DNA of 64,000 bases. It comes from an uncultured Acidimicrobiales bacterium (GTDB lineage: Bacteria; Actinomycetota; Acidimicrobiia; Acidimicrobiales; SHLQ01). Where the stretch lies: positions 20,616 through 84,615 of the forward strand of contig CAYVHV010000007.1 of NCBI GenBank assembly GCA_964451305.1, written 5' to 3'. The translations under genes and the position numbers were made by a program. Within the stretch, counting starts at the first letter, position 1. Every line of letters begins with the position of its first letter. The notes under the pieces are model-generated. The model saw nothing but the letters and a program-made list of their open reading frames with translations, was not told where the DNA came from and searched no databases. Positions 37,409 to 46,248 of the stretch are shown here, in pieces.

Positions 37409-39396
37409 TGGTCAACCGCTTGGCCACCGAGTCGAGCCCGTATCTTCAACAACACGCGGAGAACCCGGTCAACTGGTACCCGTGGGGACAAGGGGCGCTC
37501 GACCTCGCGGCTGAACAGGACAAGCCAATCTTGTTATCGGTTGGATACTCGGCGTGCCACTGGTGTCACGTAATGGCTCACGAATCCTTCGAGGACGAGC
37601 GAACCGCAGCGATCATGAACAGATCGTTCGTCAACGTCAAAGTCGATCGAGAAGAACGCCCCGATATCGATGCGTTGTACATGGAAGCCGTACAAGCGTT
37701 GTCTGGCCAGGGCGGATGGCCAATGACGGTGGTCATGACCCCGTCGGGAGAGCCCTTCTTCGCTGGTACCTACTTTCCACCGACGCCACGACACGGCCTT
37801 CCAGCCTTTGGCGACATGCTGGACGCCATTTCGTATGCATGGGAACACGAAAAGGAAGGGCTGGTCGAGCGAGCAACCCAGGTCACCAGCGCGCTGCGAG
37901 AGTGGGCACAGGTCACCCCGGGTCATGAGGCGCTCGATCGGGACCTGGTGTCTACCGCCGTCGAGGAGTTGCTCCGCAGCTTCGACCCGGTGAACGGCGG
38001 CTTCGGCTCCGCACCGAAGTTTCCATCGGCGGTCATCATCGATGTGTTGTTCCGCCATCACATCGCTACTGGCGACACGGCGTCGCTCGACGCTGCGGTA
38101 TCGACGCTCGACCACATGGCCGCTGGCGGGATCTTCGACCACCTCGGCGGTGGTTTTGCGCGGTACTCCACCGACGACAGGTGGTTGGTCCCGCACTTCG
38201 AGAAGATGCTCTATGACAACGCACAGTTGATCACGGCCTATGTGCACGGCTGGCAGCTGACCGGCTCGCGCTCGCATCTCCGCGTCGTCGACGAGACGGT
38301 CACCTACGTTCTCCGTGACCTGCGGCTCGATGGGGGAGGTTTTGCCTCGGCCGAAGACGCCGACACCGAAGGCGAAGAAGGCCGCTTCTATGTTTGGACC
38401 GAAGACGAACTCGCTGACGTTCTCACTCCGGATGAACTGGACGCTGCCAGGGGTTGGTATGGCGTCACCGATGGCGGAAATTTCGGGAATCGCTCGAATG
38501 TGTTGTTCCGACCTGACGTTGCCGTGTGGGAGCGCCCGAAGGCTATAGAGGCAATTCGCGAGAAGCTGTTCAACGCTCGGCTGGGGCGCGAACGGCCCGG
38601 AGTAGACGACAAAGTTCTGACCGAATGGAACGCGTTGATGATTGCAGCGCTCGCCGAGGCGGGAGCGGCCGCAGGGCGAACGGATTGGGTCGACGCTGCG
38701 GTCGAGGCGATGGAGTTTCTTGAAGCCCACCTGCTCGACGATGATCGGTGGTATCGAAGCTGGCAGCAGGCCAGCGGGCGTAAACACCGCTCCTACTCGG
38801 CGGACTATGCAGCGCTCATCGACGCATACACGCGCCTCGGCGAAGCGACCGGTCAGAAACGCTGGCACCTCGCTGCGTTGCGGACGTCAGAACAGATGCT
38901 GGACCTGTTTTGGGACACCGATCACAGCGGATTGTTCACCACTGGTCGAGACGGCGAGGAGCTGCTCGTCCAACGCAAGGAATTCTTCGATAGCCCGGTG
39001 CCCTCGTCGAACGCGAACGCTGCGGTCGTGCTTCAACGTGTCGGCATTATTCATGGGCGAGATGACATCGCCGGACGGGGGCGCGAACTCATGACGCTTC
39101 TGACGAGCGCTTCGTGGGAAAATCCGGCTGCCCACGCTCGGATGCTGGCGGCTGTCGACCTCGCGTTCGGCCCGACGAGCGAGATCGTCGTCGCGGGCGA
39201 TTCGCCGGACCTTCTCGCCACCGTTCGCCAGACGTATCTGCCGAACTCGGTGATCCTTCATGGCGAACGCTTTGAAAGCCCGCTGTGGAACGGTCGAGAG
39301 GACGGTCGGGCATATGTGTGCAAGAACTACACATGCACGCTACCGGCGGCCGATGTCGACGAACTCGGCGTGCAGCTCGCACGCCTCGCAGGGTAA
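37408..39396 (+). CDS. thioredoxin-domain protein (DUF255/YyaL family, thioredoxin fold plus six-hairpin glycosidase-like domain)
   Basis: [18 protein letters not shown]...[22 protein letters not shown]...[14 protein letters not shown] start at 37408. Confidence 0.88.
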
Positions 39397-39434
39397 GTTC
39401 ATGCCCGCAATGTCTCTTCGAGGAGTTCAGCACA

Positions 39435-41765
39435 ATGGATGAGCTCACGGGGCTGACGAAAAGCGAGGTTGCTGACCGCGTCAGCGCTGGCCAGACGAAC
39501 GTGTCCAGTGAGCCAGAAGGTCGCTCGTTAGCTCACATCATCGAGGCGAACGTCCTCACGCCGGTGAACGCGATCATGATCGTTCTTTTCATCCTTGTGG
39601 TGATCTCGGGCAACATCGGCGACGGCTTGTTCGTCGGTGTCGTCTTTTCGAACAGTGTCCTCGGCATTGCCCAAGAGGTGAAGGCCCGGCGCGAGCTCGC
39701 TCGGCTCCAAGTGCTGACCGAACCTGAAGCGATCGTCATTCGAGATGGGAGCCGTGAAACCGTCGACGTTGACGAGATCGTCCTCGATGACCTGATCGTG
39801 CTCAACTCCGGTTCACAACTGCCGGTCGACGGGACGGTGGTTGCGGTGACCGGGTTGCGCCTCGACGAGTCACAACTGACCGGCGAGTCGTTGCCGGTTC
39901 GCAAAGAGCTCGGCGATGACGCGCTCTCGGGCAGCTTCGTTGTTGCTGGCAGCGGCGTCATGCGGGCAACCGCGGTCGGGCTCGATAGCTTTGCCGCTGG
40001 ACTCACCAACGAAGCAAAGACATTCCGGGCCGCAGAGTCCGAGCTCCGCCGAGCGGTCAACGTGATCCTGCGATGGCTGACGGTGATCATCCCGATCAGT
40101 TCCATCCTGCTGCTCGTCGTCTTGCTCGATATCGAGGATCGTTGGCAGGACGCGCTACAAGGCACTGTCGCCGCAGCGGTTGCGATGGTGCCCGACGGTC
40201 TGGTGCTCTTGACGAGCCTCGCCTTCGTCGCAGGGTTGCTCGAACTTACCCGTCGAAACGCATTGGCATCGGAGCTGTCGACCGTCGAAGTGCTCGCCCG
40301 CGTCGACACGCTGTTCCTCGATAAGACCGGCACGATCACGACCGGCGAGATCACCTATGGAGCGACCCATGTGTCGTCGGACTGGTCAGAAGCCGACGTT
40401 CATCGCGTGTTAGCGGCGATGATCGCGAGCGACGACGATCCCAATGCCACTGCCTTGGCCCTCGCCGCCGCGGTCGGAGCGGATCCGGGATGGACGACGC
40501 GGTCGATCGAGCCCTTCTCGAGCGCCCGGAAGTGGTCGGCGATCGAATTCGCGGAACGTGGATGGTTCTATTTCGGGGCGCCTGACGTGCTGTTGTCAGA
40601 GGACGATCCAGCCAAGTCGATCGTGCGTGAGCGAAGCGCTGCAGGGAAGCGGTTGATCGCCCTCACCTCGGCTACGGCCGGGCCGAGCGGAGATGCTGCA
40701 CCCTCGGACCTGAGTACCCTGGCGATCATCGAGCTCGAAGACGAGATTCGACCCGACGCGCTAGACACGCTCCAGTACTTCGCCGACCAGGACGTGGCCA
40801 TCAAGGTGATCTCTGGCGATAACCCCGACACGGTGGCTGCGATTGCCGAGCGTGCAGGAGTGACGTTGCTCGGGCCATCGACCGATGCTCGGACCTTGAG
40901 CGACACGCGCAGCCTGATCGGAGAGTCGCTCGAAGCGGGAACCGTCTTTGGGCGGGTAGCACCACGACAAAAACAAGAGATGGTCAAGGCCATGCAAGAG
41001 CGTGGTCACGTGGTGGCGATGACCGGGGACGGAGTGAACGACGTGCTTGCCCTCAAGGACGCCGACCTTGGTATCGCAATGGGATCGGGAAGCGCTGCAA
41101 GTCGAACCGCTGCTGACCTCGTGCTCACCGACAACGCGTTCTCCACCTTGCCCGTCGTGGTGAGCGAAGGCCGAAAGGTCATCAACAACGTCGAGCGAGT
41201 GGCGAATCTGTTCGTGACAAAGGCGGTGTACGCCGTGCTGTTGACCGTGCTCGTCGGTGTTGCGGGTACGCCGTTTCCGTTCCTCCCACGCCAACTCACC
41301 CTGATCGGAACGTTCAGCATCGGGCTCCCCGGATTCTTCCTCGCGCTCGCGCCTGAGGTCGAACGAGTTCGAGCAGGATTCCTCTACCGAGTTCTGCAAT
41401 TCTCGATACCGGCCGGAATTACTGCGGGTGCGGCATCGTTTTCGGCCTACCAGTTCGCGCAGCGTGTTATGAACGTCGACCTTGGACAGGAACGCACCTT
41501 GGCCACCGTGACGCTTCTCGGGATTGGACTCGTAATTCTCCTCGTCGCCAGCCGACCGCTTCGAGTCTGGAAACTCGGACTCGTCGCCGCAATGGCCGGC
41601 GGGTATGTAGTGGTGTTTCTGGTCGCACCACTTCGAGAGTTCTTCCAGCTCGAATCGTTGAGCGCCGAACTATGGTCGATCGCAGCGATCGCCAGTACGA
41701 CGGCGAGCATCGTCATCGCGATGATCGCGTTTGTCTGCAACAAAATTGGCTCGCGTCGTAGCTAG
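39435..41765 (+). CDS. cation-translocating P-type ATPase (HAD-IC, P2/CtpE-like)
   Basis: Phosphorylation motif DKTGTITTGE, hinge TGDGVNDVLALKDADLGIAMG, and TM4 motif VPDGL. I chose the ATG at 39435 because the track start at 39285 overlaps the previous gene. Confidence 0.88.
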   Translation: MDELTGLTKSEVADRVSAGQTNVSSEPEGRSLAHIIEANVLTPVNAIMIVLFILVVISGNIGDGLFVGVVFSNSVLGIAQEVKARRELARLQVLTEPEAIVIRDGSRETVDVDEIVLDDLIVLNSGSQLPVDGTVVAVTGLRLDESQLTGESLPVRKELGDDALSGSFVVAGSGVMRATAVGLDSFAAGLTNEAKTFRAAESELRRAVNVILRWLTVIIPISSILLLVVLLDIEDRWQDALQGTVAAAVAMVPDGLVLLTSLAFVAGLLELTRRNALASELSTVEVLARVDTLFLDKTGTITTGEITYGATHVSSDWSEADVHRVLAAMIASDDDPNATALALAAAVGADPGWTTRSIEPFSSARKWSAIEFAERGWFYFGAPDVLLSEDDPAKSIVRERSAAGKRLIALTSATAGPSGDAAPSDLSTLAIIELEDEIRPDALDTLQYFADQDVAIKVISGDNPDTVAAIAERAGVTLLGPSTDARTLSDTRSLIGESLEAGTVFGRVAPRQKQEMVKAMQERGHVVAMTGDGVNDVLALKDADLGIAMGSGSAASRTAADLVLTDNAFSTLPVVVSEGRKVINNVERVANLFVTKAVYAVLLTVLVGVAGTPFPFLPRQLTLIGTFSIGLPGFFLALAPEVERVRAGFLYRVLQFSIPAGITAGAASFSAYQFAQRVMNVDLGQERTLATVTLLGIGLVILLVASRPLRVWKLGLVAAMAGGYVVVFLVAPLREFFQLESLSAELWSIAAIASTTASIVIAMIAFVCNKIGSRRS

Positions 41766-41796: not shown

Positions 41797-43308
41797 TCAC
41801 GTTCCACAGAACGTCTGGTAGCGGTTCGTGAACCCTGCTGGCGCCGGCTCGGCGTAGAGCTCCATATCGTCGCGTTCTGTGAAGGGCGACGTGGTCACGT
41901 CCAACAGGAGATGGAACGGTTCGAGGTTTCCTGACCTCGCGGCCGCAAGCGCTTCTTCGACGAGGTGATTGCGAGGAATATAGATCGGATTTACCAGGTC
42001 CATCGCCGCAGCGACCTCGTCACGGTCAGCGGTGCCGAGAACATCGAGCCATTGTTGATACCAGACATCCCAGGCCTGATCTGAGGCGAGCGAGTAGTCG
42101 GTCGCGTCTTGGCTCCGGAGCACCGAAGAGAGCGCGCGGAACGCCACCGTGTGATCCGCTCCGACCCGAGCGAGCATCTCGACGAAGCCGTCGGTGAGCG
42201 CCGCTACTTCAGCGTCGTTTGATCGCTCCGCCAGCCCGATCTTGGCCGCCATGTGTGCAACCCAATGACCTCTGAACTGCTCGGGAAACGCTTCGAGAAC
42301 CTCCGTTGCTTGCGCAACGGCCTCTTCGGGTTGCTCAGAGAACAATGGGAGAAGTGTTTCGGCGAGTCGGGCAAGATTCCACTGTCCAAGCTTGGCTTGG
42401 TTGCCAAACGCGTACCGGCCCTGACGGTCGATCGAACTAAACACCGTCGATGGATCGTACGTCTCGAGGAAGGCACATGGCCCGTAGTCGATCGTCTCTC
42501 CGGAGATGAGGACGTTGTCGGTGTTCATCACACCGTGAATGAACCCGTTGACCATCCATCGGGCGATGAGGAACGCCTGAGCGTTCGTGACCGCCTTCAG
42601 CAGCTCAAGTGCGGGAACTTCTGCATCACGTAGCTCGGGGTAGTGACGTTCGATCGAGTAGTCGACGAGCTCGCGTACAAGATCAGGGTCCTTTCGTGCG
42701 GCGTACTCGAAGGTCCCGACGCGAAGATGGCTCGCCGCAACGCGGCCGAGGACCGCTCCCGGCTCCATCTGTTCTCGGCGGACGCTCGCACCGGTCGTGA
42801 CGACTCCGAGCGCCCGAGACGTCGGTACGTCGAGAGCGTGCATCGCTTCGGCCATCAGGTACTCGCGGAGCATCGCTGACAACGTGGCGAAGCCATCGCC
42901 TCCTCGTGAATACGGTGTGCGTCCCGAACCCTTGAGGTGGAGGTCGGCCAACGTCCCGTCGCTCGATGTCAGTTCGCCGAGGAGGAGTGCCCGACCGTCG
43001 CCGAGCAGAGGGGAGTAGCCACCGAACTGATGACCGGCGTAGGCCATAGCGATCGGCTTGGCCCCGTCGGGCACGTTGGTGCCGGCGAGGAAGGCTGTGC
43101 CATCCTCGCCGTGCAACCATCCAACATCGACACCGAGGTCTTCAGCGAGCTCGTCGTTGATCACGACGGCCTCTGGAGACGGAGCATCATCTGCTTTCCA
43201 CTCGGTACCGAGCGCAGGGAAACGCGTGGCGAAGAGCGAGGAAAGCTCCGGTGCGCCGTCAGGATTCGCCGAAGCGTTCTCCTCGGCATCGATGGTGTTG
43301 GAACTCAT
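41797..43308 (-). CDS. selO: protein adenylyltransferase SelO (YdiU/UPF0061)
   Basis: YAGHQFGGYSPLLGDGRALLLGE, HLKGSGRTPYSRGGDG and GFIHGVMNTDNVLISGETIDYGP. The C-terminus ...YQTFCGT carries a Cys, and the TGA after it is a genuine stop. Confidence 0.92.
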   Translation of the reverse strand: MSSNTIDAEENASANPDGAPELSSLFATRFPALGTEWKADDAPSPEAVVINDELAEDLGVDVGWLHGEDGTAFLAGTNVPDGAKPIAMAYAGHQFGGYSPLLGDGRALLLGELTSSDGTLADLHLKGSGRTPYSRGGDGFATLSAMLREYLMAEAMHALDVPTSRALGVVTTGASVRREQMEPGAVLGRVAASHLRVGTFEYAARKDPDLVRELVDYSIERHYPELRDAEVPALELLKAVTNAQAFLIARWMVNGFIHGVMNTDNVLISGETIDYGPCAFLETYDPSTVFSSIDRQGRYAFGNQAKLGQWNLARLAETLLPLFSEQPEEAVAQATEVLEAFPEQFRGHWVAHMAAKIGLAERSNDAEVAALTDGFVEMLARVGADHTVAFRALSSVLRSQDATDYSLASDQAWDVWYQQWLDVLGTADRDEVAAAMDLVNPIYIPRNHLVEEALAAARSGNLEPFHLLLDVTTSPFTERDDMELYAEPAPAGFTNRYQTFCGT

Positions 43309-43310
43309 TG

Positions 43311-43853
43311 TTATGCGTCTGCTTTCTCGGCTGGAGCTGTCGTGGAATCGTTCGTTGTGTCACCGGTGATCTCATCGATGATCTCGATGACCTTGGTCGG
43401 ATCAGCCTGGAAACCCTGGCCGATGATCTCACGATCTGGCCCGATAAGGACGGTCCACGGGGTACCGCCGGTGCGGTAGTCGGCCATGGTCTTTGGCGGG
43501 TGGCCGCTGTCGTGCCCGAGTGCAATGTCCTCGAGACCGTGCTCCTTAACCGACTTCAGCGCAGCTTCGGCGGTGTTGGTTTCGTGTCCCTCAAAGACGG
43601 TCTGGATCGCAATGAACTCGACCAGATCTGCCTTGCCGGCCTTCTCGTAGTGCTCCTTGACCGCTGCCAATGTCGGGAAACCGTGGGAGTGACAGCCCGG
43701 GCACCACGACTGGAAGGCGTAGAGGTAGATGATCGGTGCATCGATGTCGGCGATGCGCCGCGGCAGGTCATTTCCGTCGAGCCATTCGTCGACGCGAAGC
43801 TCTGGTGCGGGTCCGCCCGTAAGTCCGTAATTCTCTGCCATGTCGTTCTCCAT
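43311..43853 (-). CDS. TlpA/AhpC-TSA-like thioredoxin-fold redoxin (CPGC)
   Basis: YLYAFQSWCPGCHSHGFP...GGTPWTVLIGPD. It ends 2 nt before the selO start. Confidence 0.8.
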   Translation of the reverse strand: MENDMAENYGLTGGPAPELRVDEWLDGNDLPRRIADIDAPIIYLYAFQSWCPGCHSHGFPTLAAVKEHYEKAGKADLVEFIAIQTVFEGHETNTAEAALKSVKEHGLEDIALGHDSGHPPKTMADYRTGGTPWTVLIGPDREIIGQGFQADPTKVIEIIDEITGDTTNDSTTAPAEKADA

Positions 43854-43910
43854 TCCGTGCCAGCGGTACCCGATTTGGTTTTGCCGCTATGTGATAGACA
43901 AGCGAGATAC

Positions 43911-44567
43911 ATGATTGTTACACCGAAGTCGGAAAAAAATTTGCCGAGCGCGGATTCCGGGATATTGGACGCAATTCGAGCGGGGGATACCGAGGCTTTT
44001 GAGGCGCTCGTGACCGAACTGACCCCAGGGCTTCGAGGACTTGCTCGAACGTATGTGAGTAACGCTCTTGCAGAAGAGGTGGTTCAAGAAACTTGGGCGG
44101 CGGTGGTTCGCTCACTCGATTCGTTCGAAGGTCGGTCCTCGTTGAGGACGTGGATCTATCGAATCTTGCTAAACAAGGTCCGTACGCTCGCCGGCCGAGA
44201 GGCTCGAATCGTGCCATTCGCTTCGCTGGGCCTCGGCGAAGATGGTGTGTCACCGTCGGTTGAGCCGGAGCGTTTCGGCGACCGGCTCCTCCAGGACGGT
44301 GATTGGGTGGTGCCGCCAACCGAGTGGAGTGATGCCCCCGCCGAAGAGCTCGAGAATGACGAGGTGCTCGACCTTGTTCGCCATGCCATCGATGAGCTGC
44401 CTGAATCCCAGCGCGAGGTCATGCAGCTGCGAGATGTCGAGCAATGGCGCGCCGATGATGTTTGCGAAGCGCTCGGTATTTCGTCGGTGAACCAACGGGT
44501 CTTGTTGCACCGGGGTCGAGCCGCTGTTCGATCAAAGTTGGAGGACTACTATGCCGTCGCCGCATGA
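43911..44567 (+). CDS. ECF-type RNA polymerase sigma-70 factor
   Basis: Region 2 reads EEVVQETWAAVVRSLDSFEGRSSLRTWIYRILLNK and region 4 reads LPESQREVMQLRDVEQWRADDVCEALGISSVNQRVLLHRGR. I chose the ATG at 43911 because the track ORF start at 43251 lies antisense to the redoxin gene. Confidence 0.88.
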   Translation: MIVTPKSEKNLPSADSGILDAIRAGDTEAFEALVTELTPGLRGLARTYVSNALAEEVVQETWAAVVRSLDSFEGRSSLRTWIYRILLNKVRTLAGREARIVPFASLGLGEDGVSPSVEPERFGDRLLQDGDWVVPPTEWSDAPAEELENDEVLDLVRHAIDELPESQREVMQLRDVEQWRADDVCEALGISSVNQRVLLHRGRAAVRSKLEDYYAVAA

Positions 44568-44859
44568 GGAACGCTCCCGTGACGCCGACTTCGTAACGAA
44601 CCCGTTGGTGCTTCGCTGCGTCGAAGTTGTTGAGCTCATCACCTTCTACCTCGATGATGCATTGGACGTCAACGATCGTCGGGCCGTCGACACCCACCTC
44701 CGTGGCTGCGAAAACTGCACCGTGTTCGTCACCCAGATCCGCCAGACGATTCAGCTAGCGGCCGCGGTCGGACAGCGCGAAGCCGTCGAGCCGCCAGCGA
44801 ATTTCGCCGAGTTGTCGGCGCTCGTGGCGCAACGAAACGACCCGTCGACGCAGACATAA
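44551..44859 (+). CDS. soluble zinc-binding (ZAS, zf-HC2) anti-sigma factor, RsrA/RshA-like
   Basis: 102 aa with no TM segment. The ligand pattern is C23-x25-H49-x3-C53-x2-C56 (...THLRGCENC...). It overlaps the end of the sigma gene by 17 nt. Confidence 0.8.
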   Translation: MPSPHEERSRDADFVTNPLVLRCVEVVELITFYLDDALDVNDRRAVDTHLRGCENCTVFVTQIRQTIQLAAAVGQREAVEPPANFAELSALVAQRNDPSTQT

Positions 44860-44887
44860 CCCGGTCCATGACCGAATCGGTCGTGCC

Positions 44888-44913
44888 GGAATTTCTCTCT
44901 CGGACCTATGGTT
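44888..44913 (+). promoter_or_regulatory. candidate SigR/SigH-type ECF promoter (GGAAT-N18-GTT)
   Basis: GGAAT at 44888-44892, exactly 18 nt of spacer, then GTT at 44911-44913. The element lies 44 nt upstream of the ATG at 44957. Confidence 0.55.
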
Positions 44914-44956
44914 ACTGAGGTAGCAGCGAGGACTTTCTTCGCGAATGGGAGTGCAA

Positions 44957-45589
44957 ATGAGACCGGTAAAGATCACTGTCTATTCGGACTTTATTTGACC
45001 ATGGTGTTGGGTCGGGACCGTGCGTCTCGACAGGTTGAAGGAAAAGTACGGCGATCGCGTCGACATCGAGTGGAAAGCATTCTTGCTTCGCACTGGACCT
45101 CGTGATTGGCAGCGCGCAGACTTCTTGCACTACACCCGTTCGTGGATGCGTCCAAAGGAAGCCGAACCCGAGCTGGACTTCACCATCTGGGCGACCGATG
45201 ACCCCCAGCCGCATTCCAGCATCGAGGCTCAGGTCGCCTTCAAAGTGCTTGAAGAACTGGCGCCGGAAAATGCGAAGGCGTATCACGACCGGATCATGAA
45301 GGCGTACTTCGTGGAGAACCGCGACATCAGCAACGCAGACATCCTCACCGGCCTCGCCGTCGACGTAGGCGTCGATGCAGCGGCGTTCCAAGCAGCGATT
45401 GAAACTCGTAGCGAAGTGATGGTCGAGCGGGTATTCGAGGAATACAACAGCGCAATTTCACAGAACGTCACGGGCATCCCAACCGTGGTGTTCGAAGACC
45501 AGTTTCCAGTCGTCGGTGCTCAGCCGCTCGAAACCTATGAAGACATCGTCGAGCAGATCGAGAAGCAGCTCGAGTCGATGGCCGATTGA
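44957..45589 (+). CDS. DsbA-family (FrnE-like) thiol:disulfide oxidoreductase, predicted selenoprotein (UPWC); TGA at 44996-44998 read as Sec
   Basis: The ATG at 44957 (GGGAG 7 nt upstream) gives MRPVKITVYSDFI-U-PWCWVGTVRLDRLKEKYGDR... in frame with track ORF 45020..45589. The N-terminal beta-strand plus [CU]PWC is the canonical DsbA/FrnE start, and GIPTVVF is the cis-Pro loop. Confidence 0.7.
45011..45031 (+). promoter_or_regulatory. candidate SECIS hairpin for the 44996 UGA
   Basis: GTCGGGAC-CGTGC-GTCTCGAC forms an 8-bp stem with a G-U wobble at pair 5 and the apical loop CGUGC. The stem starts 15 nt after the U of UGA. Confidence 0.55.
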
Positions 45590-45591
45590 CC

Positions 45592-46248
45592 ATGACAACG
45601 CCGATCGAACTCAACCCAGACTTTCTCGTCAGTAGCGAAGAAGCCCTCAGCCAGATGTTTCATCCGGCCAACGACTTCGTGACCGACAAGTGTTTGGACT
45701 ACGTCCACGAACATGCGCGGGTCTTTATCGAACGCTCGCCGTTCATGCTGATCGGCTCGCAGTCAGCCGATGGGCACGCCGATGTTACGCCGCGCGGTGA
45801 CCCACCCGGGTTCGTCAAAGTGCTCGATGATGACAAGACACTCCTGATTCCCGACCGTCCTGGGAACAACCGAATCGACACGTTGCGGAACCTCGTGTCG
45901 AACCCTCGTATCGGGCTCATCTTCCTGATCCCAGGTTTCGAAGAGACCATGCGCGTCAACGGTGCAGCTCAGCTCACCCGAGATCCAGAGCTTCTCGAGA
46001 CGATGGCCGTAAAGGGCCGCGTCCCGAAGATCGCAATCGCGGTGCGCGTCGATGAGGTCTACATCCACTGCGCCAAGGCCATTCGGCGGGCAAATCTGTG
46101 GGATGAAAGCGAGCATCAGGATCGGAGCGAGTACCCGACCATGGCCAAGGTGATGCTCGATCACACCTACGGTGCTCCCGATGATCCCGAGGTGATGAAA
46201 GAGATCGACGACAACATGGATAACTTCTATCGCACGTCGTTGTACTAG
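45592..46248 (+). CDS. pyridoxamine 5'-phosphate oxidase-family FMN-binding protein
   Basis: ADVTPRGDPPGFVKVLDDKTLLIPDRPGNNRIDTLRNL...RIGLIFLIPG..ETMRVNG. An alternative TTG start at 45586 overlaps the previous stop. Confidence 0.75.
   Translation: MTTPIELNPDFLVSSEEALSQMFHPANDFVTDKCLDYVHEHARVFIERSPFMLIGSQSADGHADVTPRGDPPGFVKVLDDDKTLLIPDRPGNNRIDTLRNLVSNPRIGLIFLIPGFEETMRVNGAAQLTRDPELLETMAVKGRVPKIAIAVRVDEVYIHCAKAIRRANLWDESEHQDRSEYPTMAKVMLDHTYGAPDDPEVMKEIDDNMDNFYRTSLY

Follow-up and report, generated by a model that had tools for sequence, protein, structure and literature searches.

Two predicted stress circuits at an ECF sigma/ZAS anti-sigma locus of a marine Acidimicrobiales bacterium

Genes and signals at the locus

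We analyzed a stretch of 64,000 nucleotides (nt), hereafter the window, from the genome of an uncultured Acidimicrobiales bacterium of marine metagenomic origin (3.56 Mb in 88 contigs, 60% G+C; the window is C7:20616-84615), and compared it with relatives that also belong to the Acidimicrobiales. At positions 41797 to 46248, the genes of an extracytoplasmic function (ECF) sigma factor and of a small zinc-binding anti-sigma (ZAS) protein lie between a divergent operon for a redoxin and SelO and a gene for a selenocysteine (Sec) containing FrnE oxidoreductase. Our analyses support a thiol and oxidative-stress gene cluster with a real ECF sigma/ZAS pair. They also suggest that the locus probably holds two separate stress circuits side by side, in which the neighboring sigma would control the redoxin-SelO operon and SigH, encoded on another contig, would control Sec-frnE. 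The features of the locus are as follows:

41797-43308, minus strand: SelO/YdiU protein adenylyltransferase, second gene of its operon (Pfam SelO PF02696, 5.8e-108; NF000658 YdiU, 497.6 bits against a cutoff of 431).
43311-43841, minus strand: cytoplasmic thioredoxin-fold redoxin with a WCPGC motif (start probably ATG 43841; a longer open reading frame of 180 residues begins at 43853).
43895-43922, minus strand: predicted ECF-type promoter of the redoxin-SelO operon (-35 TGTAAC, 43922-43917; -10 GTCTA, 43899-43895).
43911-44567, plus strand: ECF sigma of 218 residues (Pfam Sigma70_r2 and r4_2).
44551-44859, plus strand: soluble ZAS anti-sigma of 102 residues (zf-HC2, 1.6e-9; 17-nt overlap with the end of the sigma gene).
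44870-44889, plus strand: weakly terminator-like sequence (short hairpins, then a T-rich tail) past the anti-sigma gene and ahead of the frnE promoter.
44888-44913, plus strand: SigH/SigR-type promoter before Sec-frnE (GGAAT 44888-44892, N18, GTT 44911-44913).
44957-45589, plus strand: Sec-FrnE/DsbA-family oxidoreductase (Pfam DSBA, 2e-26; active site U-P-W-C).
45011-45031, plus strand: selenocysteine insertion sequence (SECIS) hairpin with an 8-bp stem and a CGUGC loop, beginning 12 nt past the UGA.
45586-46248, plus strand: flavin mononucleotide-dependent PPOX-type flavoprotein of the MSMEG_1061 family (TIGR04025, 244 bits against a cutoff of 170).

The sigma/anti-sigma pair is kept in most of the 80 related sigma loci that we retrieved (L-numbers below). 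The motif of the anti-sigma (H-x3-C-x2-C with an upstream cysteine), its zf-HC2 match and its conserved adjacency to an ECF sigma all identify it as a ZAS protein. As an initial annotation of this DNA had stated, it is soluble (the best 19-residue window has a hydropathy of 1.42, below the transmembrane level) and carries C23, H49, C53 and C56. The same annotation pointed out that this 26/4/3 spacing is identical to that of the RsrA zinc ligands C11, H37, C41 and C44, which is true (PMC2893595). Yet the Cys...H-x3-C-x2-C spacing is also that of Neisseria MseR (PMC2893595), and it is therefore generic for ZAS proteins and not diagnostic of RsrA. On the curated RsrA model (TIGR03988), the protein scores 24.4 bits against a cutoff of 62.5. 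Its best match among solved structures is RsiW, followed by others that include RslA and DdvA, and RsrA is absent from these matches at E <= 1.

The sigma, in turn, scores 46.6 bits on the curated SigH/SigR model TIGR02947 (SigH_actino), for which the cutoff is 251.55. It shares 28% identity with the genome's own SigH (contig C9), and the aligned recognition-helix region of its domain 4 reads VNQRVLLHRGR versus GTVMSRIHRGR in SigH. The nearest solved structures are 7QH5 and Escherichia coli RpoE, with Mycobacterium tuberculosis SigH and Streptomyces coelicolor SigR far lower. Members of this sigma family are also found without plausible GGAAT-type promoters in all 80 related loci, where the single match lies at -193 in L006/L007 with the same sequence in both. 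Judged by the two curated models and by the promoters at its own loci, the neighboring sigma is not of the SigR/SigH type (ECF12), and the promoter consensus of its group appears to be a different one. The initial annotation had itself named this outcome as one that would speak against its proposal, i.e. that the adjacent pair is an RsrA/SigR-type switch reading the GGAAT promoter.

The redoxin-SelO operon and its TGTAAC-N16-TGTCTA box

On the other side of the sigma gene, a divergent TlpA-SelO operon had been described. The arrangement stands, as the stop of the CPGC redoxin and the start of SelO are 2 nt apart, and the label TlpA is loose. The redoxin passes no Pfam model, those for redoxin and TlpA included (the best is Thioredoxin_8 at E = 0.025), and no signal, membrane or hydrophobic segment was found in it. 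Its nearest solved structures are the uncharacterized thioredoxin-fold proteins 3EYT (1e-14) and 3LOR (2e-12), with ResA and tryparedoxin at E > 0.05, and these comparisons do not place it among TlpA/ResA-type proteins. The ortholog in L001 aligns from the second methionine of the window's redoxin. Such CPGC redoxins are rare (2 of 201 genomes of the order have one), and the idea that they always stand beside the sigma was rejected because the genome G107 carries its redoxin away from any sigma gene. SelO is a conserved AMPylating pseudokinase whose physiological regulation in bacteria is poorly understood, and a full-text literature search found no paper linking it to an ECF sigma.

An alignment of the divergent intergenic regions reveals a two-part box upstream of the redoxin that overlaps the first codons of the sigma gene on the opposite strand. 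Its minus-strand consensus is TGTAAC(A/G)-N15-(T/G)GTCT(A/G), and in the window it would place the start of redoxin-SelO transcription near 43887. Among 81 loci, 11 carry GTAAC-N17-GTC and 2 the N18 form on the strand that points away from the sigma, and the other spacers from 12 to 22 and the other strand give 0-1 loci each. With a relaxed -10 box, the element is found in 24 loci. Slight variants also stand beside the sigma operon in two further sigma-bearing genomes (G200 and G063). Counting k-mer pairs upstream of the 80 sigma genes, an approach that we discarded, returned GC-rich noise alone.

Extra copies of the box within the sigma loci are all upstream of, and co-directional with, a gene. 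Specifically, they precede a Sec-containing methionine sulfoxide reductase A (Sec-MsrA) gene in L003, with the ATG 6 nt past the matched box, SelO in L005 (58 nt), a DUF4383-like gene in L006 and a detached ZAS gene in L055. We adopted the minus-strand orientation because every copy then lies upstream of a gene. The plus-strand reading, AGAC-N16-GTTACA as an autoregulatory sigma promoter, was rejected on two grounds: it would overlap the only available start codon of L002, and the extra copies in L003, L005, L006 and L055 would then point at no gene. In L006, L031 and before the Sec-MsrA gene of L003, the C of GTC stands exactly 10 nt before the first base of the start codon, a geometry that fits leaderless transcripts from an ECF -10 element.

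The nearest relatives keep a redox gene divergent from, or near, the sigma. This is the same CPGC redoxin in L001 and L004, SelO in L002, MsrA together with the redoxin in L003, and MsrA in L008 and L009 (with MsrB behind it in L009), while in L005 SelO lies slightly downstream.

For eight close loci, we then searched the strict box genome-wide and determined which genes lie downstream of it. Of the 26 strict boxes found, 14 lie directly before operons of SelO, the CPGC redoxin or MsrA, against a chance expectation of about 0.004 by our own estimate. Several of these boxes are far from the sigma. For example, the box precedes the redoxin 28 kb from the sigma in G201, an ABM-domain gene and SelO 9 kb away in G202, and in G203 both SelO and Sec-MsrA on other contigs. 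In G204 (L118/L126, G204:C232), two TGTAAC-N16-TGTCT boxes 107 nt apart stand before an MsrA-redoxin operon, with a second SelO immediately upstream on the same strand. MsrA, Sec-MsrA or MsrA-MsrB genes are preceded by the box in G202, G203, G204, G206 and G207. These patterns indicate that the divergent redoxin-SelO operon, which the initial annotation did not connect with the sigma, is most likely a direct target of it. In the window's own genome, the predicted regulon would consist of redoxin-SelO alone, as its remaining strict sites, which precede TrpB2 and an SDR gene, are not convincing candidates.

Two side observations concern box-bearing genes of the relatives. In the MsrA genes of L003 (6511-7168, plus strand) and L134 (G203:C182), a TGA replaces the active-site Cys codon (G-U-FWG), which makes both probable Sec-MsrA genes, and each has a TGTAAC-N16-TGTCT box 6-10 nt before its ATG. 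In L003, a perfect 15-bp inverted repeat (L003:5609-5650, GTGCACTGCAGAACC...GGTTCTGCAGTGCAC) also lies directly past one box, in the predicted 5' leader.

The Sec-frnE gene and the SigH regulon

On the other flank of the sigma/anti-sigma pair, the Sec-frnE reported by the initial annotation is confirmed. The gene starts at ATG 44957 behind a ribosome-binding site (GGGAG), and its in-frame UGA at 44996-44998 replaces the first active-site cysteine. In our survey of FrnE orthologs in 201 Acidimicrobiales genomes, those of 24 genomes contain exactly one in-frame TGA, which aligns at the same active-site position. Over these 24 genes, the SECIS hairpin has 91% of its cells paired and 13 cells with compensatory changes, and none of 500 shuffles scores as high. 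The genome also encodes the Sec machinery, including tRNA-Sec and selB (277 bits against a cutoff of 242). The product, in which no hydrophobic segment reaches membrane-spanning strength, is thus a selenoprotein of the DsbA-like/FrnE type. Selenoproteins of this type (COG2761/FrnE, U-x-x-C) were described in 2005 from marine bacteria of the Sargasso Sea by Zhang, Fomenko and Gladyshev (PMC1088965), and those share with ours the U-x-x-C motif, a bacterial SECIS with GU in the loop past the UGA and the marine metagenomic origin. Nothing essential differs between them, and the new element is the stress-type promoter before one copy. Taken alone, a SigH-type promoter before a Sec-FrnE gene extends known families in an ordinary way. 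The PPOX flavoprotein gene is probably co-transcribed with frnE, because its start overlaps the frnE stop.

The genome carries two further frnE paralogs, both without a GGAAT-type site: a second Sec-FrnE at C12:40327-40938 (59% identical, one TGA) and a Cys-type FrnE at C7:16153-16782, on the same contig just upstream of the window (29% identical).

The exact GGAAT-N18-GTT element before Sec-frnE is present where it had been noted, in a 97-nt spacer between the anti-sigma gene and frnE, and its end lies 43 nt before the ATG (44 in the initial annotation). It also agrees, as had been proposed, with the SigH/SigR-type consensus GGAAT-N18-19-GTT (PMC10012870). We counted GGAAT-Nx-GTT genome-wide for spacers of 10 to 26 nt, taking as upstream those sites in non-coding DNA within about 175 nt of a same-strand gene, with gene calls that are rough and our own. 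Totals are flat across spacers, and only N17, N18 and N19 are enriched in upstream non-coding DNA. For these three spacers together, 21 of 165 sites are of this kind versus 4.9 expected (P = 2e-8), and for N18 alone 9 of 48 copies versus 1.4 expected (P = 1e-5), i.e. a six-fold enrichment.

The genes behind GGAAT sites include thioredoxin (trxA), a pyridine-nucleotide disulfide oxidoreductase, an AhpD/CMD protein, a lipoprotein redoxin, DnaK and Hsp20, as well as HtpX, FtsH, Pup, a group-2-like sigma, DUF302, DUF427 and Sec-FrnE. This gene set is a textbook SigH/SigR regulon. Its predicted reader is also encoded in the genome, on contig C9, where a sigma passes the SigH model (255 bits against 251.55) and the ZAS protein encoded behind it has RsrA as its best-matching family. 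A GGAAT-N18-GTT element lies inside the 3' end of this sigH, 65 nt before the RshA-like gene, and the rshA of Corynebacterium glutamicum has a SigH promoter at 63 nt in the same arrangement (PMC10012870).

The frnE site fits this regulon in sequence, in its distance to the start codon and in the function of its gene, and it is very probably a genuine SigR/SigH-type promoter. Because GGAAT sites are enriched genome-wide before classic SigH targets, we assign it to the canonical C9 SigH, to whose regulon Sec-frnE most likely belongs. The initial annotation had inferred a disulfide-stress-inducible selenoprotein under the adjacent switch. Stress induction remains probable, and the assignment to the adjacent pair does not hold up. 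FrnE stands beside the sigma in none of the 80 related loci, and the sigma is near Sec-FrnE in none of the 23 other Sec-FrnE loci; the adjacency of FrnE and the sigma is confined to the window's lineage.

Other GGAAT-associated sites and genes deserve a brief mention. The second GGAAT-N18-GTT of the window (41415-41440) lies inside the coding sequence of a P-type ATPase and is probably fortuitous. A pup gene whose product ends in GGQ (C23:34783-35057) has a GGAAT-N18-GTT 21 nt upstream, and pupylation may belong to the SigH regulon in this genome. The canonical SigH and its RshA-like partner occupy C9:52822-53858 (minus strand), and the N terminus of this partner is extended by 50 residues rich in Pro, Ser and Ala.

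Two predicted circuits, their alternatives and related systems

Given the observed gene identities, motifs, motif enrichment, conservation and synteny, we infer the pairing of each promoter with its sigma, the inducing signal and the transcription starts on the basis of sequence, enrichment and comparative genomics. In the first circuit, the ECF sigma would be kept inactive by its co-translated cytoplasmic zinc-finger anti-sigma. An oxidant presumably hits the Zn-Cys site of the anti-sigma and inactivates it, and the freed sigma would then direct RNA polymerase to TGTAAC-N16-TGTCTA (43922-43895, opposite strand), so that the CPGC redoxin and the AMPylating SelO would be transcribed as one operon. 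In related genomes, the same box would drive MsrA, Sec-MsrA and MsrB, giving a small regulon for the repair of oxidized proteins that resembles those of Neisseria sigmaE/MseR or Haemophilus RpoE2/HrsE. In the second circuit, the canonical C9 SigH/RshA pair would read GGAAT-N18-GTT and drive Sec-frnE, probably together with the PPOX flavoprotein gene, and Sec-frnE would thereby join the general thiol/heat-stress regulon.

A number of observations weigh against this wiring. For the first circuit, the link between the sigma and its box is one of co-occurrence only, and the sigma operon itself was found to have no such box before it, unlike in the autoregulated Neisseria system. A scan of the window's genome for GTAAC-N17-GTC shows no enrichment and no other convincing copy of the box, and both MsrA genes of this genome are without it. 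The anti-sigma also differs from RsrA at the residues reported as redox determinants, E39, E40, L45 and E46 (PMC3177212), having R51, G52, T57 and V58 at these positions (0 of 4 matches); this indicator is weak here because the RshA-like protein of the genome matches at 0 of 4 as well. For the second circuit, about one in six (~16%) of the upstream N18 sites is expected to be fortuitous, and none of the 23 other Sec-FrnE genes is preceded by a GGAAT-type site other than those explained by coding sequence. The locus is absent from the contigs of three metatranscriptomes of the same study. DNA reads of a related strain span the intergenic region with few differences and provide no useful conservation signal.

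Some of these points would be expected if the TGTAAC box is real and is read by another sigma or by a DNA-binding regulator, the adjacency of the sigma being coincidental or a matter of co-regulation. The co-occurrence basis of the assignment and the lack of a box before the sigma operon both fit such a reader, and the genome holds about 20 sigma-70-family genes. We nevertheless consider this unlikely, as the box stands beside this sigma family in distant lineages and subclades. Elsewhere it is rare: across 200 other genomes of the order, it occurs about 0.2 times per genome and is no commoner than a reversed control pattern. Its form, two boxes with a fixed spacer, is typical of ECF promoters, and it resembles the consensus of a characterized ECF/ZAS system that controls msrAB.

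With respect to the second circuit, the GGAAT site before frnE could be a chance match, and frnE transcripts could come from read-through out of the sigma/anti-sigma operon or start at an unrecognized housekeeping promoter. The window contains 2 copies of GGAAT-N18-GTT versus 1.44 expected from shuffles, i.e. the bare motif is not above chance, and the proportion of fortuitous upstream sites and the absence of the motif before the other 23 Sec-FrnE genes are in line with this view. The intergenic hairpin at 44870-44889 is weakly terminator-like, and a terminator consensus scan finds such sites no commoner than in shuffles, which leaves it suggestive as a terminator. A chance match is improbable in our view, given that the upstream non-coding placement of N18 sites is enriched six-fold, that a spacing of 43 nt to a start codon that has a ribosome-binding site is typical, and that thiol-disulfide oxidoreductases such as this product are the most typical class in SigH/SigR regulons.

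Least probable is that the adjacent sigma is SigR-like and, with its ZAS partner as an RsrA-type thiol sensor, drives the GGAAT promoter of Sec-frnE: the genes are adjacent on the same strand, the ligand spacing equals that of RsrA, and the GTAAC box of the sigma family, taken as its reverse complement, coincides with the -10 region of frnE (GTTAC), but both proteins fall far short on the curated models, the sigma is distant from the true SigH in identity and in its recognition-helix region, no related locus has FrnE or a GGAAT promoter, none of the four RsrA redox determinants is present, and a SigH/RshA pair is encoded elsewhere.

Each of the two predicted circuits has parallels in characterized systems. 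In Neisseria meningitidis, sigmaE (NMB2144) is paired with the small cytoplasmic ZAS anti-sigma MseR (NMB2145), its regulon comprises its own operon and msrA/msrB, and its consensus is GTMAGBWTT-N12-13-CGTCTAAH, with about 17-18 nt from GTMAG to GTC (PMC2893595). The Haemophilus influenzae RpoE2/HrsE pair responds to HOCl and H2O2, and HrsE resembles ECF group 13 anti-sigma factors according to its authors (PMC7907618). The pair described here is like both in having a small cytoplasmic ZAS anti-sigma directly after the sigma with the 26/4/3 spacing. Its predicted regulon is likewise very small and, in the relatives, would center on methionine sulfoxide reductase. Its predicted box resembles their promoter form, GTAAG/C, about 17-18 nt, GTCTA, at the level of consensus sequences only. 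Unlike in those systems, the host is an actinobacterium (Acidimicrobiales) and the predicted targets are cytoplasmic (SelO, the CPGC redoxin, and Cys- or Sec-MsrA) versus the envelope MsrAB of Neisseria and Haemophilus. It differs further from them in that no autoregulatory box was found and in that MsrA is outside the predicted regulon in the window's genome.

The second circuit compares with SigR/RsrA of S. coelicolor and SigH/RshA of Mycobacterium and Corynebacterium (ECF12), which match it in the frnE promoter consensus, the classical regulon and the SigH ortholog on C9. By contrast with those systems, the sigma and anti-sigma at the locus are outside the ECF12 family and the SigH that would read the promoter is encoded on a different contig. 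Gene adjacency can therefore mislead: a stress promoter beside a sigma/anti-sigma pair appears to belong to a sigma encoded elsewhere.

We tentatively put forward, as a realistic possibility, that the sigma/anti-sigma pair defines an uncharacterized actinobacterial stress regulon (TGTAAC-N16-TGTCTA) with SelO, the hitherto unstudied cytoplasmic CPGC redoxin and Cys- or Sec-MsrA as its recurring targets. If true, AMPylation by SelO would belong to a sigma-controlled response dedicated to the repair of oxidized proteins, and the co-transcribed redoxin would be a candidate partner or substrate of SelO. A sigma-specific promoter common to SelO, the CPGC redoxin and MsrA would thus provide a cheaply testable hypothesis as to when SelO is made, and with which partner.

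The surroundings of the sigma genes vary among the relatives. In L002 (4641-7276, compared with 39285-41765 of the window), a P-type ATPase gene overlaps the anti-sigma gene by 4 nt, and the orthologous ATPase of the window lies on the other side of SelO; the position of the SelO/sigma/anti-sigma cassette therefore varies relative to the DUF255 and ATPase genes. In one sigma subclade, which includes L006/L007, L169 (G200) and L170 (G063), the gene divergent from the sigma encodes a cytochrome-b/SdhC-like membrane protein, and a gene for a DUF4383-like membrane protein, with the box before it, comes after the anti-sigma (both annotated by sequence reading only). In 24 of the 81 sigma loci (e.g. 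L030:2868-3983), with more distant sigmas about 50% identical, the sigma usually sits behind a same-strand gene for a protein of about 370 residues that reads as GT4 glycosyltransferase-like.

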